This document shows, piece by piece, positions 7,467-64,000 of a stretch of 64,000 nucleotides of DNA; position 1 is the first letter of the stretch, and each line of letters opens with the position of its first letter. Below the pieces are notes generated by a model. The model saw only the letters and a program-made list of their open reading frames with translations. It was not told where the DNA came from and did no database searches. The translations under genes were made by a program, and so were the position numbers. The DNA is from Kiritimatiellia bacterium (GTDB taxonomy: Bacteria; Verrucomicrobiota; Kiritimatiellia; RFP12; UBA1067), in NCBI GenBank assembly GCA_017628025.1, contig JAGBZX010000006.1:3433-67432 (forward strand), written 5' to 3'.

Positions 7467-7469
7467 AGA

Positions 7470-9202: not shown

Positions 9203-9260
9203 AGTTTCTTCCTTAGAGTTTATCGTGGAATTTAGTCGTCACGCATGAAGACCAACGCAT

Positions 9261-9269
9261 AGTATATCA
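9261..9269 (-). promoter_or_regulatory. extended -10-like element TGATATACT upstream of serA
   Basis: Minus strand reads TGATATACT, 58 nt upstream of the serA ATG, in the 75-nt spacer after the preceding gene. Confidence 0.4.
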
Positions 9270-9277
9270 TATTTCGC

Positions 9278-14927: not shown

Positions 14928-14933
14928 ACGCTC

Positions 14934-15668: not shown

Positions 15669-15677
15669 AATATTCCT

Positions 15678-16724
15678 TTACGAATTACGCCAATTACCAG
15701 AAGATGATTGCGCCGACTCATCTTCATTTGTAGCAATCGTGGGCTTAAATGTTTTACAACCAATCTCAGATAGCACTGATGAAAGTTTAGCAAATTGCTC
15801 TTCATCTTCATAAAGCCCAACTATCGCCCCACCTGAGCCAGCGAATTTCGCGCTTGCCCCAACACTTCTAGCGCGAGAGACCATAGCTTTATTTTCTTCG
15901 CTAATATTAAAAACTTTAGTCCTTAAATCGAAATTTAAATTAATAAGCTCATTAAGAGTCTTATAATCGCCCTGTAACAACGCGTCTCTACCATTTTGCG
16001 CGACATCTGCTAAAGAAGACATAACGCTTTTAACTTCGGCATTATCAGCCAAAAAGAGGTTTCTAACAGCTTTATGTGCTTTGCCGCTTTCTTCAGCTCT
16101 ATTTGGATCAAACGATAAATACAAATTAGGTACAGAAGCATCTAATTTTTCATATCTACCGTAGCCATTAAGCTCAAGATACGAACGCTCAAAATCCATA
16201 AAGATTAACCCATTATACATTTGAACTACTCTATCTTGAAGCCCACAGGCAATACCTAACTCGTCACGCTCTGCTCTTAAACAAATTGTTGGCGTCTCTT
16301 CTAATGGGATCTCAATATCGTAAAAGCGCATAAGCGCCTTTAACATCGCAGAACAGATTGCACTTGAGCCAGACAAACCAACTAAGCGTGGAATGTTAAT
16401 TTTATATTCTGCAGTAAAATTAATTTTTGGTAATTCTATAGAATGCTCAAAGCAATATTCAAAAAAAAGCTTAGCAACAGCCTTTAACATTCTCACGCCA
16501 CCATAATAACCATACAGTCGTAAGTTTCTAACCAAATCTGCCGCATTATCAAACGACGCATCATCCACTTCACCAGGTACAAAACGCAGTCGTGAGCTTT
16601 CTGTTAATTGTAATTCTACACAATACTCACGAAATGTAAAACTAAGAGTTTTGCCATAGTAACCATCACTAGGATTACCTAATAACCCTGCTCGTGCAAA
16701 ACTTTTAGTAAAAACACTTTTCAT
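15678..16724 (-). CDS. GHMP-family sugar-1-kinase, glucuronokinase-like
   Basis: 348 aa. GLLGNPSDGYYGK, YYGGVR, GLSGSSAICSA (GHMP motif II), GLQDRVVQMYNGLIFMDF, NLNFDLR and KFAGSGGA match my recollection of plant-type glucuronokinase rather than GalK/MvaK. Confidence 0.65.
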   Translation of the reverse strand: MKSVFTKSFARAGLLGNPSDGYYGKTLSFTFREYCVELQLTESSRLRFVPGEVDDASFDNAADLVRNLRLYGYYGGVRMLKAVAKLFFEYCFEHSIELPKINFTAEYKINIPRLVGLSGSSAICSAMLKALMRFYDIEIPLEETPTICLRAERDELGIACGLQDRVVQMYNGLIFMDFERSYLELNGYGRYEKLDASVPNLYLSFDPNRAEESGKAHKAVRNLFLADNAEVKSVMSSLADVAQNGRDALLQGDYKTLNELINLNFDLRTKVFNISEENKAMVSRARSVGASAKFAGSGGAIVGLYEDEEQFAKLSSVLSEIGCKTFKPTIATNEDESAQSSSGNWRNS

Positions 16725-29994: not shown

Positions 29995-30002
29995 AGGAAT
30001 TA

Positions 30003-30350
30003 TCAGAGTGAATTTTTCTCTGCCTCAAGGAATTGCCAAACCCTTACGCAACTATCATACTTAGAAAGTGGCGAGGAGACAAGCGGTATCCCTAGCGAAT
30101 CAGCAACCTGGCACATAGTTTGAGGCAATGGTTTATCATTGTGAACGACAACGCACATTGCTCCAACTATGTTAGCCGTACGAATGGCTTGATCAGAAGC
30201 TAACGAAGTTAAAAGGAGTATATCTTCAGAGTCATTAAGAAGAACATCACTCATAAGATCATTAGCCACAACAGCGCCAACAGATCTATTAGATTGACCA
30301 CCTGCAACAAGTGTGCCATTAAGAGTTTTGATAATATCTGCTATTTTCAT
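30003..30350 (-). CDS. DRTGG domain protein
   Basis: 115 aa. DLMSDVL ... LLLTSLASDQAIRTA ... GIPLVSS pattern is typical of stand-alone DRTGG proteins. AGGAGAAG ribosome-binding site. Confidence 0.7.
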   Translation of the reverse strand: MKIADIIKTLNGTLVAGGQSNRSVGAVVANDLMSDVLLNDSEDILLLTSLASDQAIRTANIVGAMCVVVHNDKPLPQTMCQVADSLGIPLVSSPLSKYDSCVRVWQFLEAEKNSL

Positions 30351-37774: not shown

Positions 37775-38517
37775 CTTATTATCCTCCATCCACTAAAAGG
37801 CCAAAAAACGACGCTTGCTACGCCGCATAAATTCTTTTGGGGGACAACACCCCAATATCTACTATCGAAACTATTATTGAAATTATCTCCACAAGCATAA
37901 TACTCGCCCTCTCTCATCGTGACACTTAATGGCGAGCCAGGAACTGGATGCTCTAATTTATAAGTCTGACCGGGCGATGCCTTCATACGTTTTATATAAT
38001 GAATCCCTTGGGCTAAACCATCGATCCCTGTAGTAGAAAATATCATGACCTCGCCAGTACGAGGACGCATAAAATTCCAACGCCAGCGATTAACAAATAT
38101 AAAATCGCCAGTTGTAACATAGCCCTTCCAAACTGTTTCCCCCTTGCGAAAAGAACGCCCCGCAATCTCTGCGCACGCGTCAGTCGGGAGTTTAAAGGAG
38201 TCTCTAGAAAGGCCTACTCGAACATTTGCAAAGCCATCGTTGCGCGGTTCAACTCGAGCTATCCCCGCAGAAGGCGCTTTACACTCCACATAACGCGAAC
38301 CTGTCCACACCCACTTAAGCGCAGAAAGCGGAAATGTGTCCCACGTTGTCTTTTCTGATACCTGCTTAGTGTGATATCCCCACAGTGTAGGTTGCATCGA
38401 CCCTGTGGGGATATTAAACGGTTCATAGAAATAAGCGCGGAAACACATCGCCACGCTTATTGCTACTACAAGCGTATCAAGCCATTCTTTGCCGTAATCG
38501 GAAAATGTTTTTTTCAT
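37771..38517 (-). CDS. lepB: signal peptidase I
   Basis: S26 motifs PTGSMQPTL and GDNFNNSFDSRYWG. ATG at 38515-38517 overlaps the guaB stop (TGATG); ORF-track start 38520 is TTG. Confidence 0.85.
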   Translation of the reverse strand: MKKTFSDYGKEWLDTLVVAISVAMCFRAYFYEPFNIPTGSMQPTLWGYHTKQVSEKTTWDTFPLSALKWVWTGSRYVECKAPSAGIARVEPRNDGFANVRVGLSRDSFKLPTDACAEIAGRSFRKGETVWKGYVTTGDFIFVNRWRWNFMRPRTGEVMIFSTTGIDGLAQGIHYIKRMKASPGQTYKLEHPVPGSPLSVTMREGEYYACGDNFNNSFDSRYWGVVPQKNLCGVASVVFWPFSGWRIIR

Positions 38518-40022
38518 CAAGTACGGTAATTAGGCGCTTCTTTCGTTATTGTAATATCGTGCGGACGCGCCTCACGTTGACCAGCGGCAGTAACACGATA
38601 GAACTTGCCTTTCTTCTGAAGCTGCTCTATCGTTTTCGCGCCGCAATAGCCTAAAGACGCTCTAAGACCACCACAGAACTGAGTCATGATGCTCTTGACA
38701 TGGCCAGAATAAGGCACCATACCCTCAATACCCTGAGGTACCAAGCTATCATCATCCTCGTTATCTTGGAAATAACGCGCACGTGAGCCCTTGCCGTTTT
38801 TCAACGCAGCCATTGAACCCATACCACGATAGACGACATATTGTCGACCATTTGAATAGATTTTTTCACCAGGACTTTCTTCAGTTCCTGCAAGAACAGA
38901 ACCGAGCATCACAGAATCAGCGCCAGCAACAATAGCCTTAGGAACGTCGCCAGAAAGCTTTATGCCACCATCGGCAATCACCGCTACACCTGATCCGCGA
39001 AGAGCTTTTGCTGCTTCATAAACTGCCGTAAGCTGCGGAATACCAACGCCACAAACGACGCGAGTAGTGCAAATAGAACCTGGACCAATACCTACTTTAA
39101 CAGCATGAGCGCCTGCTTTTGCAAGAGCCTTTGCAGCTTCGCCTGTAGCGATATTACCTGCAATTACATCGATATTTGGATAATGCTTAACGATGTACTT
39201 AGTCATATCCATAATACCTTTGGTGTGGCCGTGAGCAGAATCTACTACCACTACATCGACACCAGCCTCGGCAAGTTTCTCCATTCTAGAGAGGTCTCCC
39301 TTGCCACCAGAGACAGAGGCACTAACACGCAAGCGAAAATCTGAGTCAAGGTTGTAACTGGAATCTGAGTTCTCAACAATACGTCTAACATCAGTAAAAC
39401 TATAAAGACCAGCAACACGATTGCGCTTATCTACAATTGGCAACTTACCAATCTTATGATGACGCATAATCTCATAAGCTTGAGCAAGCGTAGTGCCAGG
39501 CTTAGCAGTGACAAGATTTTTCTGCATCACATCTCTAAGCTTTGCCGCATTCATCGGCGCAAAACGCATATCGGACGATGTTATCATACCGACGAGATGT
39601 TCCTCTGCATCAAGCACTGGGAAACCGCTGAAAGCAAGTTTCCTGCGAGACTTCTCGCTTCTAAGATAACCGATATCATCATCTTCGTGGAAGCATACGG
39701 GATCAGCAATAAGACCGCTAAGATGTTTTTTAACTATCTTAACTTGGGCGGCCTGTTCATCCTCTTCAAGATTTTTATGAATAACACCAATTCCTCCAGA
39801 CAGCGCCATTGCAATTGCCATAGGCGCCTCTGTTACTGTATCCATCGCAGCGGAGATAAAAGGAATTTTCATTTTAACTCGGCTCGTAAGCTTTGTATCT
39901 AGCTTTGTATCATCTGGAAGAAAATCTGCGTATTGAGTAACTAACGTAACATCATCATACGTTAGCCCCTCATACGGAAAAGTCTTCATAAATGCGTCAA
40001 GGTACTTATTCGTGCTATTCAT
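38517..40022 (-). CDS. guaB: IMP dehydrogenase
   Basis: 501 aa. TIM barrel with an inserted CBS pair, catalytic [11 protein letters not shown] loop and [11 protein letters not shown]. Confidence 0.95.
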
Positions 40023-50681: not shown

Positions 50682-52502
50682 TTAGCCAATAACTGCGAGC
50701 GTGTCGCCCGTTGCAACCTTATCGGTGGCATTTACTGTAATAGTAACAGTACCATCGCAAGTAGCCGTAACAGGCGTCTCCATCTTCATAACGTCCATAA
50801 CGAGAATTTCGTCACCCTTTGAAACTCTCTGGCCATTGGTAGCTGTAACGCGAAGGATTGTTCCAGGAACTGGGGCTTTGATTTCTTCGCCACCAGCAGG
50901 AGCTGCTGCCGCCGCAGGAGCGGCCTTAAGACCAGCCTCAGCCTTGAAGGCAACTTCCTTGCCATTGACAACTGCCTTATCGCCCTTAATTTCAACGCCA
51001 TAAGCCTTGCCGTTAATCGTAACAGTAACAGCACCGCCCTTAGCAGCTGCAGGCTTTTCTTCTTCTGCGAAACGGCAGCCCATTGGAGCCTTTGAAGGAT
51101 CCTTAAGGAAGAGAATGCCCTTTTCAAGGCAAGAAGCTGCGATAAAGATATTCTCGTCGGTGACAGGAAGTCCAGCATCTTCAAGCATCTTCTTAGCAAC
51201 TGCGCCGCCCTTCTTAGGGTCAGCGTCGTTCATCTCAAGAACCGTCTTCGTGGTAGGCTCGCTGTATGCTTTATTAAGATCACTTGAAGCCATAAATTCA
51301 GAAGCCTTCTTAACGATCTCTGGGTCTGGTGGAACAGGAGTCTTGCCAAAGTAGCCAAGAACCATCTTCGCATAACCAGGGGCAAACTTCTTGAACTTGC
51401 CGAACATGACGTTCTGAATAGCCTGTTGAGCATAGAACTGGGAGACAGGAGTTACAGAAGTGCCGAAGCCGCCAAGACGGACACAATCGTACATTTCTGC
51501 AATCATGTCATCATACTTATCCATCATATTGTTGTCACGAAGCATTTGAGTATTGGCGGTAAGAGCACCACCAGGCATCGGGCTCCAAACAATCTGAGGA
51601 TTGACGTTCATAGCTTCTGGCGGGAGGAAGTATTTCTTCATCGCGTTCTTGAAGCTATCCTCAGCCTTCTTGACCTTGTTGATATCAAAGTCGAAACCGA
51701 AATCTGGATCGCCATCAAGGCAGTGCCACATCGTAATGATGTCGGGCTGGCAAGTTCCGCCGGACATCGGCGCCATCGAAAGGTCGATACCATCAGCGCC
51801 GCCCTGAAGAGCCGCCACATAGCAAGCAACACCATTACCGGCCGTCTCGTGACTGTGGAACTGAATGTGGATATCATTACCAAGAAGCTGACGAGCAAGC
51901 TTCATCGTATTGTAAACGGTAGCAGGCGTCGCGGTACCAGAAGCATCCTTAAAGCAGACGCGATCGAAAGGAATACCAGCGTCCATAATGAGTTTCAAGC
52001 GATCGCGATAGAACTCAGGCGTGTGCGTACCCTGATTGTCAATTCCAGGAGGAAGGCCCATCATCGTGACGGTAACTTCGTGGTTAAGACCAGCGTCATG
52101 AATACACTGGCCAGACCACTTGAGGTTATTGACGTCATTTAAAGCATCAAAGTTACGAATTGAGCTCATGCCATGCTTCTTGAACATATCAGCATGAAGC
52201 TTAATCATATCAGAACTCTGAGACTCAAGCCCTACGACGTTAACACCGCGAGAGAGCGTCTGAAGGTCTGCTTCAGGAGCTGCCTTACGGAAAGCGTCCA
52301 TTACATCGAAAGCGTCTTCTTGGCAGTAGAAATAGCAGCTCTGGAAACGCGCACCGCCACCAGCCTCAAACCAGCGGATACCAGCGTCATAAGCCTCCTC
52401 AACGCATGGGAGGAAATCTTTGGAGAGAACGCGCGCACCGACAACACTCTGGAAACCGTCGCGGAACGCAGTGAGCATGAACTTAACGTTTTTCTTAGCC
52501 AT
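50682..52502 (-). CDS. oadA: oxaloacetate decarboxylase alpha subunit (carboxyltransferase plus biotinyl domain)
   Basis: 606 aa with an N-terminal HMGL-like carboxyltransferase TIM barrel, an Ala/Pro linker and a C-terminal biotinyl domain with VMKMET. Confidence 0.88.
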   Translation of the reverse strand: MAKKNVKFMLTAFRDGFQSVVGARVLSKDFLPCVEEAYDAGIRWFEAGGGARFQSCYFYCQEDAFDVMDAFRKAAPEADLQTLSRGVNVVGLESQSSDMIKLHADMFKKHGMSSIRNFDALNDVNNLKWSGQCIHDAGLNHEVTVTMMGLPPGIDNQGTHTPEFYRDRLKLIMDAGIPFDRVCFKDASGTATPATVYNTMKLARQLLGNDIHIQFHSHETAGNGVACYVAALQGGADGIDLSMAPMSGGTCQPDIITMWHCLDGDPDFGFDFDINKVKKAEDSFKNAMKKYFLPPEAMNVNPQIVWSPMPGGALTANTQMLRDNNMMDKYDDMIAEMYDCVRLGGFGTSVTPVSQFYAQQAIQNVMFGKFKKFAPGYAKMVLGYFGKTPVPPDPEIVKKASEFMASSDLNKAYSEPTTKTVLEMNDADPKKGGAVAKKMLEDAGLPVTDENIFIAASCLEKGILFLKDPSKAPMGCRFAEEEKPAAAKGGAVTVTINGKAYGVEIKGDKAVVNGKEVAFKAEAGLKAAPAAAAAPAGGEEIKAPVPGTILRVTATNGQRVSKGDEILVMDVMKMETPVTATCDGTVTITVNATDKVATGDTLAVIG

Positions 52503-53286: not shown

Positions 53287-53359
53287 AAAAATATGTTCAT
53301 AATCCAGCAAATTTCACGCGGATTTTGATTCCAAAAATTGTACAATTAAATGAGTCAAA

Positions 53360-53750
53360 TCGGAAAGGCAAGGTGGCGAGGTGGCAAGGTGAAGAGAGGA
53401 TAGTTTGAGTGAGGGAGTTAGGGAGTGCAAGGTGAAGACTAAAGGTGAAGGTGAACAATGGAGAGTTAAAAGTTTGAGTTCGAGAGCGGAATAGTAAAAA
53501 AACGTACATTCTCTAACTCGAAACTCCAACTAATCTTAATCTTGTTTTTATTTCTTTGCTTTCGCTTCTTGGAGATTTGGAGTTTTGGAGGGATTGCGCA
53601 AGGCGGTAATGAAATCCACTCTTCACCTTCGCCTTCACCTCAAACTTTCTAAACCTCCTTAACCTAACTCAAGCTTTGCGTAAATCTCCAATTCTACTCT
53701 CCAACTCCCTCACTTCATCACTCATAACTCTCAACTCATAACTAGCCCCT
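53360..53750. repeat. approximately 390-bp imperfect, strand-asymmetric palindrome built from short words (GGTGAAG, GAGTT, GAGGGAG, AAAGTTTGAG)
   Basis: The plus strand is purine-rich and nearly C-free at 53365-53500 and pyrimidine-rich at 53608-53745. The reverse complement of the right arm is roughly collinear with the left arm (shared gtgagggagtt, aaagtttgag, ggtgaagg blocks). A nested inner pair lies at 53508-53530 / 53568-53592 around an AT-rich centre near 53550. Confidence 0.75.
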
Positions 53751-53761
53751 GAGCATCCTGT

Positions 53762-54718
53762 CTATTTCCAGCTGACCGTGCCGCTCTCGGAGATGCTCAC
53801 TTCGCGGAAGAAGTCAATGAGGTAGCTCTTGGCGCAGTGTCCATATGGATAGCCCGCAAACACAGGGCAGTCGAGCGTCTGCGCATAGACCGGCAGAAAG
53901 GCATCGAGCGCCTTGCGCTCCTCGCCTGCGTGGCGGAAATCCGCGAACACGACTGCGGCGGCATCCCTCAGGTAGCCGCTGTCGCGCATCGTCTCGAGGA
54001 ACTTCTTCAGGTCAGCCGCCGGATAGTGCGCCGTGCACTCGATGAACACCACCCTTCCCGCCGCAGAAGGCGCGAACTTCGTGGCGGTGGCGAGCCTGTG
54101 CACCCTTTCGAGGTGTCCGCCCATTGGCAGACCCTTCGCCGCGCCCGCCTTGAGCACCTTCACCTTCACTGGCTTGAGTGGCGCGCCTTCGAGCATCGCC
54201 CTGAACCACTTGGCGGAGGCCGCGTCCCATTGCGAAAACGACGAGATCATCGACCCAGAATACGGATGCCCCGCCTTCTGCGAAAGCATCGTGTTCACGA
54301 TAAGCGTTATGTCGCTGAATCCGACGACGCGCATCTCGCGCGAACGAAGCTTCTCCCAGTCAATCTTGCCAATAAGGTCGATGGCGCCCGACCCGCCGCG
54401 TGCCATGACGATGATGTCCACCTCTGGATCCAGCCACATCTTCTCGAAGTCCTTCACGCGGTCCTCGGCCGCCGCCCGCTCCTTCACGCGCACGAAGTCG
54501 CCGAGCTTCACCTTGTACCCGGCCTCCTCGAGCATCTGCACGCCCCTGTCGAGCATCCGGCGCTCCGGCACCGACGCCGGCGCCAGGATTCCCACCGTCT
54601 TCACGTCCTCGGGGAACAGCCCCTTCACGGACGACAATCTTCTCGCGGCGGGCTTGTCCGCTCCCATCGCAGTGCAGCAAAGCACCGCCCCGTACACCAA
54701 ACCTATCAACTTGACCAC
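53762..54718 (-). CDS. LD-carboxypeptidase / MccF-like serine peptidase (S66), apparently with signal peptide
   Basis: 318 aa with VGILAPAS, nucleophile motif GFSDIT and GYPYGH. The GTG start (54716-54718, AGGGG 10 nt upstream) gives a hydrophobic N-terminus VKLIGLVYGAVLCCTAMGA. About 62% GC. Confidence 0.8.
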   Translation of the reverse strand: MVKLIGLVYGAVLCCTAMGADKPAARRLSSVKGLFPEDVKTVGILAPASVPERRMLDRGVQMLEEAGYKVKLGDFVRVKERAAAEDRVKDFEKMWLDPEVDIIVMARGGSGAIDLIGKIDWEKLRSREMRVVGFSDITLIVNTMLSQKAGHPYSGSMISSFSQWDAASAKWFRAMLEGAPLKPVKVKVLKAGAAKGLPMGGHLERVHRLATATKFAPSAAGRVVFIECTAHYPAADLKKFLETMRDSGYLRDAAAVVFADFRHAGEERKALDAFLPVYAQTLDCPVFAGYPYGHCAKSYLIDFFREVSISESGTVSWK

Positions 54719-54748
54719 TGACTACTGACCCCTAAGGACCATTAAGGA

Positions 54749-57700
54749 CTATCTCACCGTAAGAATGAATCCGCCGCGGTACCACTCTATTCCACCAAGT
54801 TCTCCGCCTGTATTTATCTTGCCTGACGAAACTCTCGATGCATAATCGCCGCCAGTCCAACCTTTGCCGTCGTTATGAGAAAGCGACATTACACGAATTT
54901 TAGTGTTATAGAAATAAAAATAAGAATCGGACGATTCAAAAATAATATCTTTAACTTTCATGATTGCGCCGTCGCCAAACGACGATCCATCGTTAATCAT
55001 GCGTACATAAGCGCCCGATCCAATAACAAGCGTCGCTTTTTTGTAAGCAACCCTTGGATCACCGTCTGCCACCATCGGCAGCTGAGTAAGCCCTGTGCCA
55101 TAATTTGTATAGATGTACTGCCTGCCCTCGATGTAGATCGTGCCACCGTGGTGGCCGTCGCCAGGGAGTTCCTTGTAGATTGTACCGCCATGTGTGCCGT
55201 CGTTGTCGTTGTTCTGCGTTGTGATCGTAAGCGACGCAGAAGGAGACCAATCCGCCCCGGTGCGCTGGTAGATGGCGATTCTCCCCGCTCCGCCCTTCCA
55301 GCAGGTAAGCGGCTTTGTCGAAGATGTGGGGGCCGGTGCGGCAGTCACAAGGCCAGAGCCCTTCAGTGTCCCGACCTTGAGGCAGATCGCGCCAGGGGCA
55401 CCACATGCATTTGTGCCGCGATGCGAGCGCACGTTTATCTCCCCGTCAACCGTGAGGTCGCCGACGACATCGAGATATACCGCTCCCGCGCCGCCGCTCG
55501 CTCCGCCGGCGCCAGGTAGTATCGGCTCAAAGATGGAGTCGTTGCACGGCACATAGGTGCTGTTATATGAAATCGTACTGCCGTGCCCGCCACCGTTGGT
55601 GTTGCCGGCATTGTTCTTGGTGTTGTTCTTCGGCCCATACTGCGACTCAAAGCCAAGGCCAGAGAGTGCAATCTTCGCCCCTGCATCAATAGCCATGTCA
55701 CCGCCTACGGTCATGTAGATCCTGTACGAGAAGGATTTGCCGTTCGACGCGTGTTTCATCTCAGAGCCGCTCTGCATCCAGACATTGCCGCCAACGGCAT
55801 TAGGAGTATTCATGGAGCTCAAGGTTGCCGTCGCGCCGTTGCACAGGACGAAGTCCCCCGACATCGAAATCGGATATGCGGAGGTCAATGCCGCCTTGCC
55901 GCCATCCGCACCACCAAGGGTAATCGAACGGACGTTCACGTTTGCCGTCGAGCCGACAGTCACAGTGACAGTGCCTGACGTGGGGGCGATATAGACCTCG
56001 TCGTTCTCGCCGGGGACCTCGCCCGTCGACCAGTTCTCGGCCGTTCCCCAGCTGCCGCTGCCAGGCGCGATCCACTCCACGATGTTGCAGCCGAAGTTCC
56101 AGTTCTTGGTGTTGCTGCCAGTGCCGGTAGCCTTCACCTCCGCGCCGCTCAAGGCGTCGCTGTCGCTCACGGTCACGTTGCGGACGCGCTGCCTTGCCGT
56201 AAGGGCGAGCGCCCACTGCTCGCCGGGAACCGTGCTTCGTAGGATGTGCGGGTCATTCCCGCGAGACTCGATGTTGCACTGCGCGAACCCGAACTCCTCG
56301 CCGGCGCCGAAGGCGAACGTAATCGCGTCTGGAACAACGCAGTAGAACTTGTCCGCCACAAATCCGGTCGGGAGCGTCAAAGTGCCGCCCGCCTTCTCGA
56401 CATAGACGTTCTCCGCCGTCCCCGAGGCAATGTCAAGTACAGTGTCGCCGTCGCCAAACACCCCGATCCTGTTGCCGCCGTAAACTATCGTTCCGGCCGA
56501 ATAGAAGGCGTTCGAAACGAGGAGACTGGAGCCGCTGAGCGTAATTGTCGCCCCCGCCTCGTTCGTAATGGAACACATGTAATAGTCCGCGCCCTCGAAC
56601 ACGGGGTAGTTGGCAAGCCCGGACGGGATCCGCAGGCGATCGCCGTTACGGGGCGCGATGCCGACATCCCAGTTGGCGGGATTGTTCCAGCGCGTGTCAG
56701 AGCCGCCGGTCCACGTAAACAACGTGCCTTCGGGTATCTCGCCCGAAATGAAGCCCCAGTTGTCGTTGCCGCCGAGATTCGCTGAGCGAAGCGCGGTCGG
56801 CGAAACGCCGGTGGCAAGGCTGTTGCTGACCGCAACGTACTCGAAGTTCGCGAGATCTGCATACGGGCCCACGATGTTCATTGTCCACGTGCCGTTCGGC
56901 GTATCAGGCTGGAGGATAAGAGGCTTCTCCTCCGTTCCGCGAAACTCGACGGACCCGTTCTCGAGGTTGCGAATCTCTGAGCCCGCGGCAAACGAAATCG
57001 TCGCGCCCGGCGAGTTCGTGCAGAAGATGCTGTATGCCTTTACAAGCCCCTCGACGGAGAACGAGCCGTCTTCGCCGGGCATTATCTCGATCGCGCCGCC
57101 ACCCGCGACAGTGTGGAAGTCGCCATTGCCCGTCACACTTATGCCCTTCTCGACCTTGAGCGTGACGCCCGATGGGATTTCAAGGCGAGCGTAGTTCTTC
57201 ACTGAGACCTTGCCGAACGGCACATCTATGTCGACTATGGCGTCGTCGAGGCGGCACGCCATTCCCGCATAGGCGGAAATAGAGTCATAGCCCTGGGCAA
57301 TCAACTCGCCCCTGTCCTCGGCGTCGTTCGCGTTCTCGACATAGATCGATCCAACAGAATGATAGCCGTTGTATTGCTCGCTCAGCACGGGATTGCGCCC
57401 GGCGCGCATTAGCCCGGTGTACGCCGAAATGTCGTTCGCGACATACTGCCTCACGGCTATTCGCCCACCGCCGCCGTGCGAATAGTTCGTTGCCCTGCCG
57501 GCGCATGCGTTGATTTCGCCATACCCGACAAGCGTTCCGCACTCAATCCAGACGCTTCCGCCAGCAGGAGAGGAATGGGTAGTGTTGCCGCCGTTTGCGG
57601 AGACAGATCCGTTCAGCGTAAAGGTCCCGTTCGTGGCCGAGATGTGCACTACGCCGCCGCCGTAGTTGTAGGAGCCGCTGTATCCGCCGCCGCTTCCAGG

Positions 57701-60532
57701 CTCGTCTGGGCGGCGGATGGACCCAAAGCACTTCCTCGGGGAAATGGCGTATGTCGACGACGAATAGCCGCCCTGCGACGTGCCGCCATACCCCGCTCCC
57801 ATGTATGCAGTACCTTCAGCAGGCATTGGCCCCATGCCGTAGTAGTAGCCCTTCGCAGTCACGTTGATCGACGCGCCCTCTTCTATCGTCACGTCCCCAC
57901 CGACTTCGAGGTTAAGCGCATACTTCTTTGCGTTGTCGGCGGTGCCGTGGCATGTGTGCGTAAGCGTTGCCCCCTCGCGCAGGATGACGTCGCCGGAGAC
58001 TTTGTTCGTGGCGAGGCCGCAGGCGAACTCAATCGCAATTGAGCCCTCGCCGGGGCCGAAGCCGACTTCAAGCCCTGCAAGTTCAAGCGCATTCGTCACG
58101 TTGACCGTCACACTCACGCCTTCTGGCGGGCGCGTGACTACGACTGCGCTTCCGGGAGAGGGAAGTATGCCGCCCTGCCAGTAGGTCTCGTCGTAGAAAT
58201 CGACTATGCTGGAGGTCTCGCACGTGAAAATGCAGTCGGAGGCGCCGCCGAAACGCGCGCTGAACGAAGCGGGCGAATCGACCTCGAACGAAAACTCGTC
58301 TTCAAAGATGTCGCCGACGAGCGAGATATCGCCTTCCCACTGCGTGAAGCGGCCCTGTGCGGTAGGAACCGCCGTCACCGTCAGCATAGCGCCGTCATCT
58401 TGCCAGCCATTGCCGGTAACAGATCCGAGAAACGCGTCGGAGGAAACAACGGAGATGTACGACTGCGTCTTCCAGTGCCACGAGAGGACACCGAAGCCCG
58501 AGGGCGTCACAATGCAGGTGGTGTCGTCCTCGCCGGAGATTGGCGTTGTCGAATCACGCACGACGACGCCATCCATCGAAAGCGTCCATCCGGTGCAGAC
58601 CGCCCTTCTCCCTTCCGAGATGACGACTGTGGCGGGCGCGGTGTACGTCTTCGGCGTCCCCGCGACAACGTCATCGTCATATCCGTACGCAATCTCGCCG
58701 GAGCCGTATTCAACACCCGCGTCAGTCACCACCTGGACGACGGTCGAAAGCGCCGTTGAGCCGTCTACCCTTATGAAGTTTGCGTTGTTCATCGAGTCGT
58801 ATTCGGCCTTGACCCACTTGGCAGACCGTGGGATGCGCGTAATGCGGGCTTCGTCTACCTGAAGAGGCATCGCCTCCCCGCCAAACTTGAACGCAGCAGA
58901 CGCCTTCCCTATCGAATCATATGGTTTAGAGATGGTGTTTGTGCTTTTGCTTGCACCGTTAACATACGCCGCTATAGTATTGTTGGCGGCAACATAGACC
59001 AGATAGTTCCAGTTGGCGACAAAGCTCGGACAGCTGTCTGCATTAAGGGCGGCGGAACTGCTGGCCTTGCTGTTGCCATAGTATAGCTTCATGTAGTTGA
59101 CTCTTGTGTCGTATATCTGCTCGACGTAACCGCATCTCAGGGATGCGCTCCCGTAGTTGGCAAACTTGCGCATGATGCTGTTGTAGGACCCTACGCCATC
59201 CGGCTTCTTGAACCAGCAGGAGATGGTCAGGCTGTCGGGGAGCCCGTTCGTCGGGTGGATCATGTAGTCGTCGTAGTTTGCGCCTTCAAGCCCGCGGGTG
59301 AGGTGCAATGCATTGCCGCAGAACGGGGAGTTTGTCAGGGTCGTCACGGAATACCCGGTCGTGGAGTTGTAGATGTTCGTCACGTTCCAGCCGTGCCCCG
59401 TCTCGTCCGCGACACCCGTCTCGGGGTCGTAGGAATTCATGTGCCAGACGCCAACGTATTCCGACCAGACCTCTGTCGAAGCAGGCCTCGCGGCAGCGAC
59501 GCCGGAACCCCAGAACATGTAAAACTTCGTGTCCGTTCCGGAAATCTCGGGCATCTTCACCCAGACGAGCGAGGTGCCGTCCGTATCCCAAAGCTCGATG
59601 TCGCAGGCAAGACGGTTGAGGCCGTCTGCGTCAGTGGCGAAAAAGACGTCCGCGCCGCCCGCAAGGCACTTCGAATAGCTGAATGCGGTTATCGTCTCGG
59701 GCGAAACCCTCACGAGCACAGGCAACCTCTTCTGCACTTCATCGCCGCCCGCATAGCCCGCAACGGTAAGCTCCGTCCTGAATCCGGCCTCGGGCATCGT
59801 GGTTGTCGGGTACACGCTCGATGTCCTCGGGCCCGCCTTGAAAGGGCGGTCGCCGAGGCTGCCGTAGAAGACTTCATTCTCAGTGTCAAACATGCCGACC
59901 GCGCCGTCTGAATCGCGAATGGCCGGCACAAAGTTGCGGTAGTAGGAGCTGTCGGAGCTCTTTTGTATAGTAAAGCCGTAGATCATGAGCGCCGCCTTGA
60001 TATACGAGGCAGACCCCCCATTTGGTCCGCTCATCCACGCGATGTAGATGTTGTTTGTCGAAGTATACGTCTTTGCAGACAGAGTGGAAAGACCCAGGGA
60101 TGTCGAGCCGCCTACGGAAAACGTGCCGTTGTTGCACTTCCATATCATGCGGCTGTGCAGATTGCGGCCAGTGCCTATTCCAATGCTGGTGGAAGATCCG
60201 GTGGTGTAGTTGCCCAATTTGTTGTAATGAAAGCGCATCACGTTCCATTTCTCGCCATTCTGCCTTGTCGTGATGGCAACCGGGTTTACGTTGTGCCCAT
60301 CGTCAGCGCCTCCGAAAAGGGCCTGTTTAGGGTCGTTGCTCAGAAGCCGCATGTCGGCCGAGACTATAAGCCCGGACTGCGCCTTGATACCCGTGTCGAT
60401 GTATTGATGGCCGTTCGACTCGATCCACTCAAGCTGGGTATAGCCAGTTGGCAGGTCCGCAAACGCGGCAAAACCGAGAAAAACAAACACACCAGCAATG
60501 ACTGCCGCCATCTTTCCAATAAGACTCTTCAT
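54749..60532 (-). CDS. giant secreted multi-domain surface protein (lectin-like jelly-roll, DUF2341-like, LamG, B-repeat-like, Gly-rich beta-helix modules)
   Basis: 1927 aa, ATG start, signal peptide MKSLIGKMAAVIAGVFVFLGFAAFA. Domains by aa position: 26-235 YTQLEWIESNGHQYIDTG ... FVPAIR..GMFD..FYG module; 250-345 DUF2341-like (LPVLVRVS ... DIELWDTDGTSLVWVKMP ... FYMFWGS); 355-590 LamG-like (LTISCWFK ... RSAKWVKAEYDS). There are two 185-200 aa Gly-rich modules ending in GGGGRIAVRQY and GGAGRIAIYQR. Confidence 0.85.
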   Translation of the reverse strand: MKSLIGKMAAVIAGVFVFLGFAAFADLPTGYTQLEWIESNGHQYIDTGIKAQSGLIVSADMRLLSNDPKQALFGGADDGHNVNPVAITTRQNGEKWNVMRFHYNKLGNYTTGSSTSIGIGTGRNLHSRMIWKCNNGTFSVGGSTSLGLSTLSAKTYTSTNNIYIAWMSGPNGGSASYIKAALMIYGFTIQKSSDSSYYRNFVPAIRDSDGAVGMFDTENEVFYGSLGDRPFKAGPRTSSVYPTTTMPEAGFRTELTVAGYAGGDEVQKRLPVLVRVSPETITAFSYSKCLAGGADVFFATDADGLNRLACDIELWDTDGTSLVWVKMPEISGTDTKFYMFWGSGVAAARPASTEVWSEYVGVWHMNSYDPETGVADETGHGWNVTNIYNSTTGYSVTTLTNSPFCGNALHLTRGLEGANYDDYMIHPTNGLPDSLTISCWFKKPDGVGSYNSIMRKFANYGSASLRCGYVEQIYDTRVNYMKLYYGNSKASSSAALNADSCPSFVANWNYLVYVAANNTIAAYVNGASKSTNTISKPYDSIGKASAAFKFGGEAMPLQVDEARITRIPRSAKWVKAEYDSMNNANFIRVDGSTALSTVVQVVTDAGVEYGSGEIAYGYDDDVVAGTPKTYTAPATVVISEGRRAVCTGWTLSMDGVVVRDSTTPISGEDDTTCIVTPSGFGVLSWHWKTQSYISVVSSDAFLGSVTGNGWQDDGAMLTVTAVPTAQGRFTQWEGDISLVGDIFEDEFSFEVDSPASFSARFGGASDCIFTCETSSIVDFYDETYWQGGILPSPGSAVVVTRPPEGVSVTVNVTNALELAGLEVGFGPGEGSIAIEFACGLATNKVSGDVILREGATLTHTCHGTADNAKKYALNLEVGGDVTIEEGASINVTAKGYYYGMGPMPAEGTAYMGAGYGGTSQGGYSSSTYAISPRKCFGSIRRPDEPGSGGGYSGSYNYGGGVVHISATNGTFTLNGSVSANGGNTTHSSPAGGSVWIECGTLVGYGEINACAGRATNYSHGGGGRIAVRQYVANDISAYTGLMRAGRNPVLSEQYNGYHSVGSIYVENANDAEDRGELIAQGYDSISAYAGMACRLDDAIVDIDVPFGKVSVKNYARLEIPSGVTLKVEKGISVTGNGDFHTVAGGGAIEIMPGEDGSFSVEGLVKAYSIFCTNSPGATISFAAGSEIRNLENGSVEFRGTEEKPLILQPDTPNGTWTMNIVGPYADLANFEYVAVSNSLATGVSPTALRSANLGGNDNWGFISGEIPEGTLFTWTGGSDTRWNNPANWDVGIAPRNGDRLRIPSGLANYPVFEGADYYMCSITNEAGATITLSGSSLLVSNAFYSAGTIVYGGNRIGVFGDGDTVLDIASGTAENVYVEKAGGTLTLPTGFVADKFYCVVPDAITFAFGAGEEFGFAQCNIESRGNDPHILRSTVPGEQWALALTARQRVRNVTVSDSDALSGAEVKATGTGSNTKNWNFGCNIVEWIAPGSGSWGTAENWSTGEVPGENDEVYIAPTSGTVTVTVGSTANVNVRSITLGGADGGKAALTSAYPISMSGDFVLCNGATATLSSMNTPNAVGGNVWMQSGSEMKHASNGKSFSYRIYMTVGGDMAIDAGAKIALSGLGFESQYGPKNNTKNNAGNTNGGGHGSTISYNSTYVPCNDSIFEPILPGAGGASGGAGAVYLDVVGDLTVDGEINVRSHRGTNACGAPGAICLKVGTLKGSGLVTAAPAPTSSTKPLTCWKGGAGRIAIYQRTGADWSPSASLTITTQNNDNDGTHGGTIYKELPGDGHHGGTIYIEGRQYIYTNYGTGLTQLPMVADGDPRVAYKKATLVIGSGAYVRMINDGSSFGDGAIMKVKDIIFESSDSYFYFYNTKIRVMSLSHNDGKGWTGGDYASRVSSGKINTGGELGGIEWYRGGFILTVR

Positions 60533-60569
60533 GCCTACACCATGCCTCCTATCGACTATATTTTAAGCA

Positions 60570-60598
60570 ATTATATACAATTTTGCGCAGGAAGTCAA
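60570..60598 (-). promoter_or_regulatory. consensus sigma70 promoter TTGACT-N17-TATAAT for the 1927-aa gene
   Basis: The minus strand has TTGACT at 60593-60598 and TATAAT at 60570-60575 with a 17-nt spacer, in an AT-rich patch of the 127-nt intergenic region. GGAGG lies downstream. Confidence 0.6.
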
Positions 60599-60659
60599 CC
60601 AAAAAGCCAGAAAAGGCAGTGTCGCAAACCGCCCAACTACCTAACCACCAGGCTGCGAC

Positions 60660-62963
60660 TTACTTAAGAAATATCACGAGCCCGGGAGCGGCGGTGGCAG
60701 TGAACTTGCCGTCCTCGCCCTCCGCCACCCTGTAGCGCTTGGCAAACGTCAGCGCGCCGTCGGGGTCGAAATCGGTCACGAGCCGCCCGACTCCATAGAC
60801 GGAGAACACGCCTGTGTACGTGCCGCCGAGAAGCGTCAGTCTGCCGCGGACGGCGAACGGAGCCGCGACCGTGCGCCCCGCGGCGCGCAGGGTAAGGGAA
60901 TCTCCCGCCGATATGGTGTAGCTCCCGGAATCGACGTCCTCGTACAGCCAGAGGCTGTCGCCGGCGACGTGGGCGGCCATTGCATCGGCAAAAGCCGGAT
61001 AGAAGACGTTCCCTATGCGCGCGGCGCTTCCGCTTTCCGCCACAATGCTGCGCCCGTCGTCCCATTCGTACTTCGAGTAGCCGCTCGCTATGAACTCGTC
61101 GGGGGCTACGCCGTGTATTCCGCCGGAGATGTATATGTTGCCGTACTTCCCGCTTGTCGAGGTCTTTTCACTCGCGTGGCTCCTGTTTGAATACGTGCCG
61201 GTGTTTTTCATCGAACCCAACTTGAAATCACCCCCCGAGATGTACATCTTGGCAGTTGACGAGCCGCTCGACTGCGAAATCATTGAAAGAATCGTCGACC
61301 CGAAGAATTGCCCGCCTGTGACGTAGAACTGCGTATTATGGCTTCTCTCAACCGAAGCCGACGAGACGCACGACATCTTGCAGTTCCAGAATTTGCCCCC
61401 GTATATCCGCCCCGTCGCCTCCCCGTTATATTTGGTGCCTGAGCCGCTGTGCCCGCTCCATGAGCAGATGTCGCAGTTGAAGAACGTCGGGACCTTCTCC
61501 GGATCCTGCCCGATATGCCATGTGGATGAATAGTTGTAGGCTTCCACAAGCGTATTTCGGAACGTCCCGCCGCGAATTTCGATAAGCCCGCTCCATATGG
61601 GGAGAATCATGGAGTATTCGAATTTCCCGCCCTCGACGATGATGTTCGCCGCAGGCGAGACGCCGCGGGCTTCGTGATATGAGGCGGAAAGGTAGACATT
61701 GTAGAAGTTGCCGTCCTGAATGGTAAGGGAGCCGCCGACCGTGTTGGCGTTTACCCTGAATAGACCGCCATTGGAAACAAATATCCCCTTCTCCCCGCAG
61801 GAAAGCGTTATCTCCCTTGCCCCAATGTCTATGGTCTGGGAATCGGCTATGTAAAGGTCGCGCAGGAGGGTGATCGTGGCCGCCGACGAAGTGGGGATTG
61901 CCGCCACGGCGTCAGCAAAAGTGGCATACGTCTCGTTGCCCACTGCAAACGGGTTGGAAGAGTCGTCGAAGTTGAGAAGCCCCTCAGCGTTGACTATCGA
62001 GCCGCCCTTGAGCGCACCGCCGCTGCAGTCCGCGTCAAACGTGCCGCCAAGGACGTTGATCACGGCAGTGGAGCCTTTGTTGTATGCTTCGGTGGAGACA
62101 TCGCCAAAGAACTTCGACTTGGCGAAAGTGCCGCCGTGCATGTTTATGGTCGAAATGGAATTATTGCCCATGGTGCCGCTGTCCGTCGGATAGCACGTCG
62201 ACTCGAAGAAAACGCCGTCAAAGGAGCCGCCGTAGATGTCTATTGTAGGCAGATGCTTGGGCCCCGAGCCTGTCGTGACCGTCGTAAAGAACTTTCCTCC
62301 TGAATACGTACCGGAATAGACCTTGATGTATCCATACTGATTCCCAGAAGACGGGTTTTTGTTTGCGAACTGGGCGCGCGACTCGAACGTGCAGTCGGTG
62401 CAAGCAGGGCCAGTCGGCGAGCCGTCCGCCCCCATCGTGAGAGTGCAGTCGTAGTTCTGCGAAAGGAACGTGCACCGATCAAACGCCCCTTGCGATACTT
62501 CCGTCATTGCCGCGTTGAAGTCGCTAAACGACGAGTCTGCGAAGCTGCCGCCGGAGATGTAGATCCTTGCGCTATTGTAGGTGCTGCAGGTGACTTTTGA
62601 ATAGTCTCCGCCTTCCACATACAGGCGCGTCGAGCTGCCGTCCAGCTTCATGCTCATTCCGGAGAATTTCCCGCTGCGCACGCGAAGCTGGCCCGTCTTC
62701 AAAAGGGTAAAACCCTTCCCAGAAACACTGAAAGCACCGCCTTCCAGATATATGACCTTGGAGTTGTTCGTGATGTTGATGTCGAGGGCGCAGTCGCCGA
62801 GAAGCTCGATAGTCTGGCCGGTCGTGGCGGCGGTGAACGCGGCGGGGAGCGTATCGTACTGGGCCCCCGTCTCAGATATCCTCGCTACATCGGCGGCATG
62901 CGCCAGGGGCGACACGCCGACAAAGAGAATCCCGACAACGAACCATACCGCCGCATTGCGCAT
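60660..62963 (-). CDS. secreted beta-helix repeat protein with three-fold modular organisation and GGxF rungs
   Basis: Start set to ATG 62961-62963 (MRNAAVWFVVGILFVGVSPLAHA signal peptide, GGTAGGA upstream); ORF-track start 62990 is TTG. It has at least 14 h-GG-x-(F/Y) motifs and three modules opening with IG..xY.TFADA.AA....TI.LL.D-like segments. Confidence 0.8.
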   Translation of the reverse strand: MRNAAVWFVVGILFVGVSPLAHAADVARISETGAQYDTLPAAFTAATTGQTIELLGDCALDINITNNSKVIYLEGGAFSVSGKGFTLLKTGQLRVRSGKFSGMSMKLDGSSTRLYVEGGDYSKVTCSTYNSARIYISGGSFADSSFSDFNAAMTEVSQGAFDRCTFLSQNYDCTLTMGADGSPTGPACTDCTFESRAQFANKNPSSGNQYGYIKVYSGTYSGGKFFTTVTTGSGPKHLPTIDIYGGSFDGVFFESTCYPTDSGTMGNNSISTINMHGGTFAKSKFFGDVSTEAYNKGSTAVINVLGGTFDADCSGGALKGGSIVNAEGLLNFDDSSNPFAVGNETYATFADAVAAIPTSSAATITLLRDLYIADSQTIDIGAREITLSCGEKGIFVSNGGLFRVNANTVGGSLTIQDGNFYNVYLSASYHEARGVSPAANIIVEGGKFEYSMILPIWSGLIEIRGGTFRNTLVEAYNYSSTWHIGQDPEKVPTFFNCDICSWSGHSGSGTKYNGEATGRIYGGKFWNCKMSCVSSASVERSHNTQFYVTGGQFFGSTILSMISQSSGSSTAKMYISGGDFKLGSMKNTGTYSNRSHASEKTSTSGKYGNIYISGGIHGVAPDEFIASGYSKYEWDDGRSIVAESGSAARIGNVFYPAFADAMAAHVAGDSLWLYEDVDSGSYTISAGDSLTLRAAGRTVAAPFAVRGRLTLLGGTYTGVFSVYGVGRLVTDFDPDGALTFAKRYRVAEGEDGKFTATAAPGLVIFLK

Positions 62964-63045
62964 TTTCCTACCTGCTGCTTGCATAATCAAATCCTCTCCG
63001 CTAACTATTTATCGCATCAAAAGAATACCTCCTTTGAATCATTGT

Positions 63046-63073
63046 ATTTTACCAAAAGTTCCCGAAATGTCAA
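63046..63073 (-). promoter_or_regulatory. sigma70-type promoter TTGACA-N16-TAAAAT for the 767-aa gene
   Basis: The minus strand has TTGACA at 63068-63073 and TAAAAT at 63046-63051, with GGAGG downstream. The -35 overlaps one arm of a 7-bp inverted repeat (TGTCAAC / GTTGACA at 63068-63074 and 63094-63100). Confidence 0.5.
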
Positions 63074-63259
63074 CGCCCGACAGTTATCCAAAAGTTGACA
63101 GGGAACACGGCATCATTTTTCATAAGCATAACACCACATCTCCCGCATTCAGATCCAATACAGACCCTATACCAGCAAAGGAACCCGAAAAAGTGAAGAC
63201 CCTGCGAAGCCCAATAAAATCGGGGGTGTTGTGGGGTCTGGCACCAAAAGGGTCTACAC

Positions 63260-64000
63260 CTACCGCCAAATAGGAACAAAGAGGATGTCTACGCTCGTTC
63301 CTTCCTTTGGATCGCGTTCGTATCTGAAGAATCGCCAGAGGAAGGACGTTTTCGTATATCCGTTCGCCTTCGAGTCATAGGTAAAGCCTGGGAACACGTC
63401 GAGCGAAACATCACCGTTCTCCTCTTCCCAGTCCCAGAGCTTCAAAAGTACCTTCCTGTTCGCGTAACTCTTGTTCGTCATGCGATCATGCTCATGTGAC
63501 GCGTTGTAAAGGAAGAAGAATAAAGACGATTCACCTTCTTCAATGTCTGAAATTTTCTTACGCGTGCTTATGTCGAAAGTAACTTCACGCTCGCCTTCAT
63601 ATCTGTATGCGAGACGATTGCCCTGATTGTGTTCATACGTGATTTTATACTCCTTCCCCTTCCAGGGAAGTCTGCCCGACACAATACGGTCATTATCGGA
63701 TACAAGACACAAATCGGCTTTGTTATATGCATAAAAATATGTACCATCCCTCCTCGGCTCGATCGACTCAATTTCACAACACTTCTTCTTGACGTTCCAT
63801 GTCCAGTTTGTATAGACCGAATCCCAAATTTTTATCTCTTCAGGCAGTTTATCCATGTCGAGACAAGCGTACTTCCTGTCATAATTCGCATCCTTCTTCT
63901 TATTGTAGAACGGGAAGAGCCACCATCCGGTTTTACGCCCCGAGCGCTTGCCGGCAAGAGAAAGTGCGTAATAACTGTTGGTCTGACTCGTCCCGCCGCC
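63260..64000 (-). CDS. hypothetical protein (C-terminal part; ORF open to the right edge)
   Basis: The frame of the 198-aa ORF stays open upstream of its first ATG through position 64000 (..GGGTSQTNSYYALSLAGKRSGRKTGWWLFPFYNKKKDANYDRKYACLDMDKLPEE..), so the gene probably starts outside the window. No family recognised. Confidence 0.6.
   Translation of the reverse strand, partial: GGGTSQTNSYYALSLAGKRSGRKTGWWLFPFYNKKKDANYDRKYACLDMDKLPEEIKIWDSVYTNWTWNVKKKCCEIESIEPRRDGTYFYAYNKADLCLVSDNDRIVSGRLPWKGKEYKITYEHNQGNRLAYRYEGEREVTFDISTRKKISDIEEGESSLFFFLYNASHEHDRMTNKSYANRKVLLKLWDWEEENGDVSLDVFPGFTYDSKANGYTKTSFLWRFFRYERDPKEGTSVDILFVPIWR

Follow-up and report, generated by a model that had tools for sequence, protein, structure and literature searches.

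The subject of this analysis is a GC-rich block of three genes at positions 53762–62990 of a 64,000-nucleotide (nt) stretch of DNA, the window, from a Kiritimatiellia bacterium (GenBank assembly GCA_017628025.1, contig JAGBZX010000006.1, positions 3,433 to 67,432 of the forward strand). Window coordinates are used throughout, and positions 1–53000 are taken as the backbone. The block was very likely acquired horizontally by a gut or rumen Kiritimatiellae species of low guanine-plus-cytosine (GC) content (~42%) from members of the same class with a GC content of 58–64%. It encodes a family S66 peptidase, a giant secreted protein of 1927 amino acids (aa) and a near-orphan secreted protein of 767 aa (Table 1). 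A preliminary description of the window had considered, as one of two options, a recent acquisition from a high-GC donor. This view is supported and can now be sharpened: the donors are high-GC members of the same class, and a comparison of four-fold-degenerate sites with those of core genes demonstrates the transfer directly.

The compositional break is pronounced. The block has a GC content of 58.6%, compared with 41.9% for the backbone. Backbone segments of 1 kb range from 0.34 to 0.49 (mean 0.419, standard deviation 0.034, maximum 0.491), while the nine 1-kb segments of the block (53.8–62.8 kb) reach 0.545–0.625, corresponding to z = 3.7–6.0 relative to the backbone. At a resolution of 200 nt, the GC content on the left climbs from 0.39–0.47 to more than 0.6 over the ~200 nt next to the stop codon of the S66 gene at 53762, and falls on the right from 0.6 to 0.40–0.47 just past 62990 (0.40–0.48 past the promoter-like site); the edges of the block coincide with gene ends. 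The GC content at third codon positions (GC3) of the three genes is given in Table 1 and compares with 0.24–0.50 for 44 backbone open reading frames (ORFs). Since GC3 is elevated in all three genes, the shift is mutational and synonymous rather than an effect of amino acid composition. Tetranucleotide z-scores of the block correlate with those of its own backbone at only 0.39–0.41, as opposed to 0.71 between the two backbone halves. By all three measures, i. e. GC, GC3 and tetranucleotide usage, the block thus deviates from the host chromosome in the manner of a genomic island, which bears out the GC-rich three-gene block in a low-GC backbone that the preliminary description had proposed. Its hand counts over 60 nt are exact in every case (40.0% at 30001–30060, 61.7% at 54001–54060, 61.7% at 55141–55200, 63.3% at 61021–61080 and 21.7% at 54901–54960). 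The accumulation of long antisense ORFs that it had reported for the block is also confirmed and is an expected by-product of the high GC content. All three genes lie on the minus strand, as does nearly every gene of the window, i. e. on the prevailing strand of the host. They are separated by gaps of 30 nt (S66/giant) and 127 nt (giant/767-aa gene) that contain no host DNA.

Table 1. Features of the block and its edges, together with the core genes used as controls (window coordinates).
Feature	Position	Strand	Remarks
S26 signal peptidase	37771–38520		window vs L105: 74% aa identity, four-fold-site identity 0.30
IMPDH	38517–40022		window vs L105: 88% aa identity, four-fold-site identity 0.28
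Long imperfect purine/pyrimidine inverted repeat	53370–53752	.	between S66 gene and hisI, ~380 nt, left edge of block
Peptidase S66, LD-carboxypeptidase-like, 318 aa	53762–54718	-	Pfam PF02016 and PF17676; GC 0.62, GC3 0.83
Giant secreted protein, 1927 aa	54749–60532	-	signal peptide, DUF2341, LamG-like, InlB B-repeat-like; GC3 0.72; window vs L105: 87% aa identity, four-fold-site identity 0.73
Low-GC conversion tract, 3' end of giant gene	54767–55075	-	~310 nt; about the last 105 codons minus the final 6; contains the 22% GC dip
AT-richer spacer with promoter-like site of giant gene and AGGAGG ribosome-binding site	60533–60659	-	TTGACT-17-TATAAT, 60598–60570
Near-orphan secreted protein	60660–62990	-	767 aa from ATG 62963 or 776 aa from TTG 62990; GC3 0.74
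Promoter-like site of 767-aa gene, right edge of imported DNA	62991–63075	-	TTGACA-16-TAAAAT, 63073–63046
Right-flank gene, 3' part	63260–64000	-	354–415 aa in related contigs, no family; GC3 0.54–0.59; outside high-GC block

Homologues place both the host and the origin of the block. As to the host, HisI, which is encoded 0.5 kb to the left of the block, has counterparts with 82–90% identity in 80 genomes at species level, which come from ruminant, horse, human or chicken gut and, with few exceptions, bear the labels Kiritimatiellae, Verrucomicrobia or Lentisphaerae. The hisI neighbourhoods of these relatives mostly have a GC content of 55–70%, with a few at 43–52%; hence, in a group that is mainly rich in GC, the window represents a lineage of unusually low GC content. 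The nearest non-self homologues of all three block genes are found in housekeeping-rich contigs with a uniform GC content of 58–64% and a GC3 of 0.8–0.9. The closest non-self homologues of the S66 gene (75–78% aa and 78–81% nt identity, four-fold-site identity 0.55–0.59 to the best relatives) are located on six such contigs of 58–64% GC with housekeeping genes (L098–L102 and L109), three of which share the same BPL_N-like upstream gene. The giant is 86–87% identical on the aa level and 87% on the nt level to P0129/P0130 in L103–L105 (uniformly 62% GC), where the genes are flanked by genes for an M48 peptidase and a 1333-aa HEAT-repeat protein, near L31, RF1, IMPDH and signal peptidase; a further homologue with 80% identity lies beside rpsA and L28 in L108. 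For the 767-aa gene, a homologue with 90% aa, 92% nt and 0.89 four-fold-site identity is flanked by genes for a Y1 transposase-like protein and GH28 in L107 (uniformly 60% GC). In addition, those flanks of L103 and L105 that are not homologous to the block resemble it in tetranucleotide signature (r = 0.76).

L105 also provides a control within a single pair of genomes, as it encodes IMPDH and signal peptidase, both of which have orthologues in the window (Table 1). Four-fold sites are saturated in these core genes but not in the giant gene, whose common ancestor with the high-GC lineage is therefore much younger than that of the genomes themselves. As its composition is native in the high-GC lineage and foreign here, the direction of transfer is set. 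The block is thus phylogenetically incongruent with the core genes, as is typical of genomic islands. The GC3 of the three genes is only 0.01–0.04 below that of the donor-type homologues, and amelioration has therefore barely begun. The taxonomic placement of the high-GC contigs relies on 88% identity of IMPDH to the window and 88% identity of DHDPS to L051, a hisI-linked locus of a relative.

Further evidence is provided by the 3' end of the giant gene. Two native paralogues of the giant are arranged in tandem on a contig of 42% GC from one of the same samples (L106, positions 3844–15769, ERZ28653808 scaffold_85). They comprise 1982 and 1922 aa, are 53–58% identical to the giant on the aa level and have a GC3 of 0.29–0.32; they lie directly upstream of rpmH-yidC, with genes for more large Flg_new_2-type proteins on the other side. 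In a sliding comparison, residues 30–1800 of the giant are mostly 85–100% identical to the high-GC type, while residues ~1810–1927 are 98% identical to one of the paralogues, L106b, and 57–68% to the high-GC homologues, a relation that is reversed upstream. This L106b-like region is exactly where the GC content drops to 0.38–0.41, and the local dip to 22% within the giant gene that the preliminary description had pointed out is now explained as part of it. On the nt level, the tract is ~97% identical to the native low-GC paralogue and ends in sharp breakpoints at ~55075 and ~54767, located at the short shared motifs CCGATGG and CGCGGCGGATTC. The six single-nucleotide polymorphisms (SNPs) that separate the tract of the window from that of L001/L094 are precisely the sites at which the window differs from L106b, and L001, which stems from the same sample as L106, is identical to L106b across ~245 nt of the tract. 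Outside the tract, the giant and L106b are only ~70% identical; hence, there are no long shared k-mers, and switching within a de Bruijn graph is ruled out as a source of the mosaic. In the simplest reading, the tract results from ectopic gene conversion from a resident low-GC paralogue into the imported gene within one cell. Import and host paralogue thus share one genome, which constitutes independent evidence that the block resides in the low-GC genome. The converted C-terminal module was also considered as a shared sorting domain, an idea that was rejected, as the module is restricted to the giant family and the two host paralogues are only 54% identical there; a swap for functional compatibility is accordingly speculation.

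The region was recovered from other assemblies by an exact-protein look-up. The whole block with both flanks is present in L005/L094, a 46-kb scaffold, and the block with its left flank in L004 (a 71-kb scaffold that reaches 2.7 kb beyond p776) and in L006 (a k141 contig made with MEGAHIT that belongs to a separate ENA assembly record). L001, L002 and L007 span the left junction from the S66 gene via the inverted repeat to hisI, and L095, L096 and L097 the right junction. Logan contigs cover the joints between the genes, i. e. the giant 3' end and S66 gene (L003) as well as the flank, the 767-aa gene and the giant 5' end (L097). Altogether, no fewer than four samples and three assemblers yielded assemblies with both junctions and the whole block. 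L004 and L006 represent a different strain, whose identity to the window is 99.23% in the block and 99.20% in the flank (0.77–0.80% divergence), with SNP densities of 2–10 per kb in the block and 0–6 per kb in the flank. This equal divergence implies that block and flank diverged together. On this sequence evidence, the block is regarded as real chromosomal DNA and not as an assembly misjoin.

The block occupies a site between the gene for a 415-aa protein and the inverted repeat upstream of the hisI-oadGAB operon, a site that is strain-variable and non-syntenic. Among 56 related species whose sequence reaches at least 5 kb upstream of hisI, not one holds block genes there, and this region is non-syntenic across the family. 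At least two strains (the window type and L004/L006) carry the block, whose presence at the conserved site is thus patchy. A contig from a metagenome-assembled genome of the same species (L008; GCA_045646825.1, JAZRLH010000120.1) matches the window at 98.5% identity along 6.5 kb of the flank (hisI-oad-rSAM), with homology ending at ~53663 within the inverted repeat. Beyond this point, it carries different cargo (positions 1–2750), namely a protein kinase gene with a GC3 of 0.67, a gene for a 153-aa lipoprotein-like protein with a GC3 of 0.38 and a partial ORF of 174 aa. At its other end (9329–10716), the ArgRS gene is truncated at 166 aa and linked to an ABC permease gene that is not part of the window. 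Since it deviates at this end as well, L008 may be either a real rearranged or mosaic strain or a misassembled contig.

As stated in the preliminary description, the left edge of the block lies at a palindrome: it adjoins the distal end of a long imperfect inverted repeat, which is unique in the window. Its plus strand is free of C at 53370–53502 and free of G at 53607–53752, and RNA folding gave z = -2.9. Rfam scans of the block and of a longer variant of the repeat returned nothing credible (one Chlorobi-1 match, E = 0.93). In this longer form, found in L004 (9230–10000), L006 and L008 (2385–2960), the repeat contains ~220 additional nt (plus 29 nt), with a 28-nt direct repeat, TGTTCACCTTCACCTTTAGTCTTCACCT, on either side. 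The arms of the inverted repeat are also where many short-read contigs stop. In the low-GC relative L039 (75–9668; hisI side ~43–45% GC), an ORF of 3197 aa with 52% GC and a GC3 of 0.56 is located directly upstream of hisI, a hint that this site harbours large surface genes of elevated GC content in other species, too. In the neighbouring oadA gene (51000–52000), L004/L006 show a cluster of SNPs with 26 mismatches per kb versus 0–6 in the surrounding flank, which may represent a small recombination tract in a core gene.

The preliminary description had offered as its second option that an assembler stitched high-GC contigs into a low-GC contig. Such a chimera would find a basis in the co-occurrence of both kinds of organisms in the same samples (e. 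g. the high-GC contig L101 stems from the sequencing project of window-like contigs), in the many contigs that end within the inverted repeat and in a break inside the giant gene in one sample. It would, however, require four switches in composition (at 53.76, 54.77, 55.08 and 63.0 kb) to arise identically in four or more samples, and in metaSPAdes-type scaffolds, k141 contigs of MEGAHIT and Logan contigs alike, and is further contradicted by the same 0.8% strain divergence in block and flank and by the ~70% identity of the high-GC gene and the low-GC paralogue, which offers no long k-mers for graph switching. With junctions that recur across samples and assemblers, co-divergence of block and flank, and a giant gene that carries a tract resembling the native paralogue, a misjoin is extremely improbable. 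The same holds for vertical inheritance, according to which ancestral genes kept their high GC content by selection or biased gene conversion while the genome drifted towards AT. A mostly high-GC family makes a high ancestral GC content plausible, and the proteins belong to Kiritimatiellae families. Yet, four-fold-site identity to high-GC genomes is 0.59–0.89 for the block genes and 0.23–0.33 for core genes of the same lineages; the low GC3 of the native giant paralogues demonstrates that the family is not shielded from AT drift; and the genes are missing at the site in the same-species metagenome-assembled genome as well as in the 56 relatives. There is hardly any room left for this explanation.

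How the block entered is less clear-cut. Entry as one donor segment is the likelier course, given that the genes share one orientation and follow each other at distances of 30 and 127 nt without intervening host DNA. The competing view is that of three adjacent captures, in which the genes arrived one by one, perhaps from more than one donor, at a hotspot of recombination next to the long inverted repeat. It appears rather unlikely, even if several observations agree with it: the genes have three distinct native neighbourhoods in high-GC genomes, their four-fold identities to the nearest homologues are unequal (0.89, 0.73 and 0.55–0.59), homology to each relative ends at or near gene ends, and L008 holds other, partly GC-rich cargo at the same site within a region that is non-syntenic across the family. 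However, three insertions would have had to land head-to-tail in a single orientation at these short distances, and neither a recombinase nor a shared boundary motif was found. The unequal divergence can be explained by uneven sampling of donors, and since gene order is fluid in the family, an unsampled donor may hold the trio together. More doubtful still is an extension of the hotspot idea, in which the inverted-repeat site would capture DNA independently of a recombinase via breakage at the fragile repeat. It would take up promoter-bearing surface genes from co-resident high-GC relatives as strain-specific cargo, and imported giants would be domesticated by conversion of their C-terminal ~105 residues for compatibility with export or anchoring in the host.

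Several points weigh against horizontal acquisition as a single chromosomal segment. The physical linkage of the block to its flanks is drawn from assemblies, several of which may come from one BioProject. In the assembly of sample SAMN15830153, the giant gene is interrupted at ~55.9 kb (~55895–55910): scaffold_144 opens with an unexplained 31-nt tip (L001 1–31), which has no match in any sequence compared, and both scaffold_5267 and a MEGAHIT contig (L095) stop after 15 nt of the overlap. Three other assemblies continue through this position, and the break points to a graph branch caused by a variant or a second copy there. L106 is tied to the same genome through sample, composition and the identical tract only. 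Among the high-GC contigs, the best matches to the block genes are 92%, 87% and 81% identical on the nt level, and the true donor is unsampled; in the sampled high-GC genomes, the three genes occupy three separate neighbourhoods, and their arrival in a single event is inferred. Polarised parsimony counts of GC-to-AT versus AT-to-GC substitutions are indistinguishable between the window branch (2.6:1) and the control branches (2.1:1). Finally, the mobility signatures of genomic islands, i. e. an integrase or transposase, a tRNA target and flanking direct repeats, are lacking.

With respect to such signatures, the search for a tRNA at the block, for integrase or transposase domains in the adjoining ~10 kb to the left and right, and for direct repeats or a target duplication at the edges was negative throughout, in line with the preliminary description. 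An integron cassette signature was not recognized either, as there is no integrase nearby and no shared boundary motif, although no search with a formal attC model was carried out; the large block genes carry promoter-like sites of their own, unlike the promoterless cassettes of integrons. PADLOC gave no hits and PHROGs only the unnamed family of the S66 protein, which provides no ground for a defence or phage reading.

For horizontal acquisition as one segment, the entry, its mechanism and the surface function of the products may be outlined as follows. A donor segment with three independently promoted or closely spaced genes would enter from high-GC Kiritimatiellae, probably by illegitimate or microhomology-mediated recombination, as no dedicated recombinase is evident. 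After entry, ectopic conversion from the resident low-GC paralogue overwrote a stretch of ~310 nt in the 3'-terminal part of the giant gene. Judging from the predicted functions, the cassette would add a variant of a fast-evolving surface or adhesin-like family, a second surface protein and an exported peptidase for peptidoglycan peptides, and could thereby alter the envelope that the cell shows to its host, to glycans or to phages.

The S66 protein contains both domains of its family above the Pfam cut-offs (PF02016, 88.3 bits, cut-off 25; PF17676, 50.4 bits, cut-off 23.7). The roles of the Ser, Glu and His residues in this family are general knowledge. These residues, located in the motifs GFSDIT, FIEC and YGHC, align with GHSDFT, FVED and FGH of 6UUK, and alignment with 1ZRS and 4H1H also matched the triad; GFSDIT was additionally aligned with the pair 4H1H/4INJ, in which 4INJ has GFADIT where 4H1H has GFSDIT. 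As far as can be judged from these alignments, the Ser-Glu-His catalytic triad is shown to be intact. The protein thus resembles S66 enzymes such as the murein tetrapeptide LD-carboxypeptidase LdcA and MccF with respect to both Pfam domains and the catalytic residues. Unlike LdcA, it has a signal-peptide-like N-terminus and scores far below the equivalog threshold, with 70 bits against NCBIfam NF008424 compared with a cut-off of 378. The E. coli LdcA is a cytoplasmic protein. By its domain scores, the block protein is classified as a member of the family, while a murein tetrapeptide specificity as in LdcA is not supported by the score.

The two large proteins are rich in Gly, Ser, Thr and Ala. 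The preliminary description had listed an S66 peptidase and two secreted repeat proteins; the S66 assignment is upheld by Pfam, while BLASTP self-comparison revealed no significant internal repeats in either large protein. In the N-terminal part of the giant, whose signal peptide was called by eye, DUF2341 passes its Pfam cut-off (24.7 versus 23.4), and Laminin_G_3 (27.1 versus 27.6) and Flg_new_2 (22.7 versus 23.6) are both just under theirs; in precomputed annotation, homologues of the giant show both DUF2341 and LamG. The C-terminal two-thirds, ~1200 residues, are Gly-rich and beta-rich and match no family. A PDB sequence search with both large proteins gave no match. A Foldseek search of the PDB with an AlphaFold model of the last 350 residues of the giant (predicted local distance difference test score 78, beta-rich) returned nothing below E = 0.2, the weak and non-significant matches being beta-solenoid adhesins and lyases. 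The C-terminal beta-barrel translocator of autotransporter (type V) adhesins was likewise not detected in the giant, neither as a Pfam hit nor as a significant match of the model. In its predicted signal peptide, its DUF2341 and its near-threshold concanavalin-like (LamG) domain, the giant resembles the DUF2341/LamG giant secreted proteins of Planctomycetes-Verrucomicrobia-Chlamydiae bacteria. More than 200 large proteins with this domain pair were found, and the two with a source label are both from Kiritimatiellae. In contrast to these proteins, the C-terminal 1200 residues of the block giant have full-length homologues in only ~19 clusters and no match among solved structures.

The 767-aa protein has no match in Pfam, NCBIfam, PADLOC or PHROG, and among 1.84 billion representatives just two families match it, at 30–31% identity. 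The C-termini of both large proteins (encoded at 54749–54775 and 60660–60690) consist of a short hydrophobic beta-strand followed by a basic residue (GGFILTVR and PGLVIFLK). Homologues end alike (MTIHVR and FSIRVK), and a C-terminal signal may be present. The near-consensus sigma-70 sites before each large gene reported in the preliminary description were recovered as two 11/12 matches on the minus strand (60598–60570 for the giant gene and 63073–63046 for the 767-aa gene). The high-GC homologue in L103 has TTGACA-17-TATAAT at the position equivalent to that of the giant gene, and the -10 region of the 767-aa gene is partly alignable with L107. Because equivalent sites precede the high-GC homologues, the AT-rich promoter patches probably travelled with the large genes. 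A blastn-short comparison detected neither host-derived promoter patches nor shared boundary motifs.

To the right, a continuation of the unit beyond the window, which the preliminary description had considered, is not supported for the high-GC block. The block stops at ~63.0–63.1 kb, and the next 5.9 kb (L095 1–5900, with genes for the 415-aa protein, an alpha/beta-hydrolase-like protein, an MFS transporter and a TetR regulator) have a GC content of 46–51%, a GC3 of 0.48–0.60 and a tetranucleotide correlation of 0.58 to the backbone compared with 0.22 to the block. Homologues of TetR and MFS with 76–81% identity are located 8 kb from hisI in a relative. Four-fold-site identity to a relative with 61% GC is 0.43–0.48 for TetR and MFS versus 0.23–0.33 for hisI and oadA. 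The right flank may be native or an older, partly ameliorated import. Its first gene, characterized by an FLWRFFRYERD-type motif, is interrupted in the window, leaving a 198-aa ORF. This gene is hypervariable between strains: in L094 (2473–3537), it shows 62 mismatches per kb to the window, compared with 0–6 elsewhere, and its counterpart in L095 lies at 4443–5690. In addition, a 100-nt element, composed of a pyrimidine tract followed by TTGACTCATTTAATTGTACAA, occurs in the same orientation and with 89% identity upstream of hisI in the window (53332–53427) and upstream of the TetR gene in L095 (556–656); the latter copy lies ~4.3 kb (5.3 kb by another estimate) past the right end of the window. 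It may be a dispersed, promoter-bearing intergenic repeat. As an island boundary, it was rejected for the high-GC block, as TetR and MFS are backbone-like and have the above-mentioned homologues near hisI in a relative.

Taken together, an abrupt change in GC content within a contig assembled from a metagenome need not be an artefact, and its authenticity can be examined even in the absence of reads, namely by recurrence in independent assemblies, co-divergence of block and flank, comparison of synonymous sites with those of core genes and the use of a paralogue-derived conversion tract as a marker. The block documents the exchange of large cell-surface proteins between gut Kiritimatiellae that differ by ~20 GC points. 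As a case dated by composition, with almost no amelioration, it is useful for studying how imported envelope genes are integrated. A literature search on Kiritimatiellae, GC content and horizontal gene transfer returned nothing relevant.

Two details are of moderate interest when compared with known systems, namely the xenologue/paralogue mosaic and the strain-variable site, free of mobility genes, by a long inverted repeat. Mosaic genes formed by recombination between diverged alleles are exemplified by pneumococcal pbp and Neisseria penA. The giant gene shares with these the abrupt breakpoints in ancestry within one ORF and the preserved reading frame. Unlike in pbp and penA, the tract was donated by a resident paralogue of the same genome, and the gene that received it is a newly imported xenologue; with a difference of 20 GC points and an identity of only ~70% between the segments, homologous recombination of the classical type is improbable. 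With compositional genomic islands, the block has in common a sharp step in GC, GC3 and tetranucleotide usage, strain variability, a cargo of surface proteins, the signature of a donor lineage and incongruence with core genes. It differs from them in the absence of integrase, transposase, tRNA target and direct repeats, in its size of only three genes, and in a donor that belongs to the same class with a very different GC content rather than to a distant phylum. Hence, the block is no new kind of system, but an ordinary, unusually well documented gene transfer of a well-known kind.

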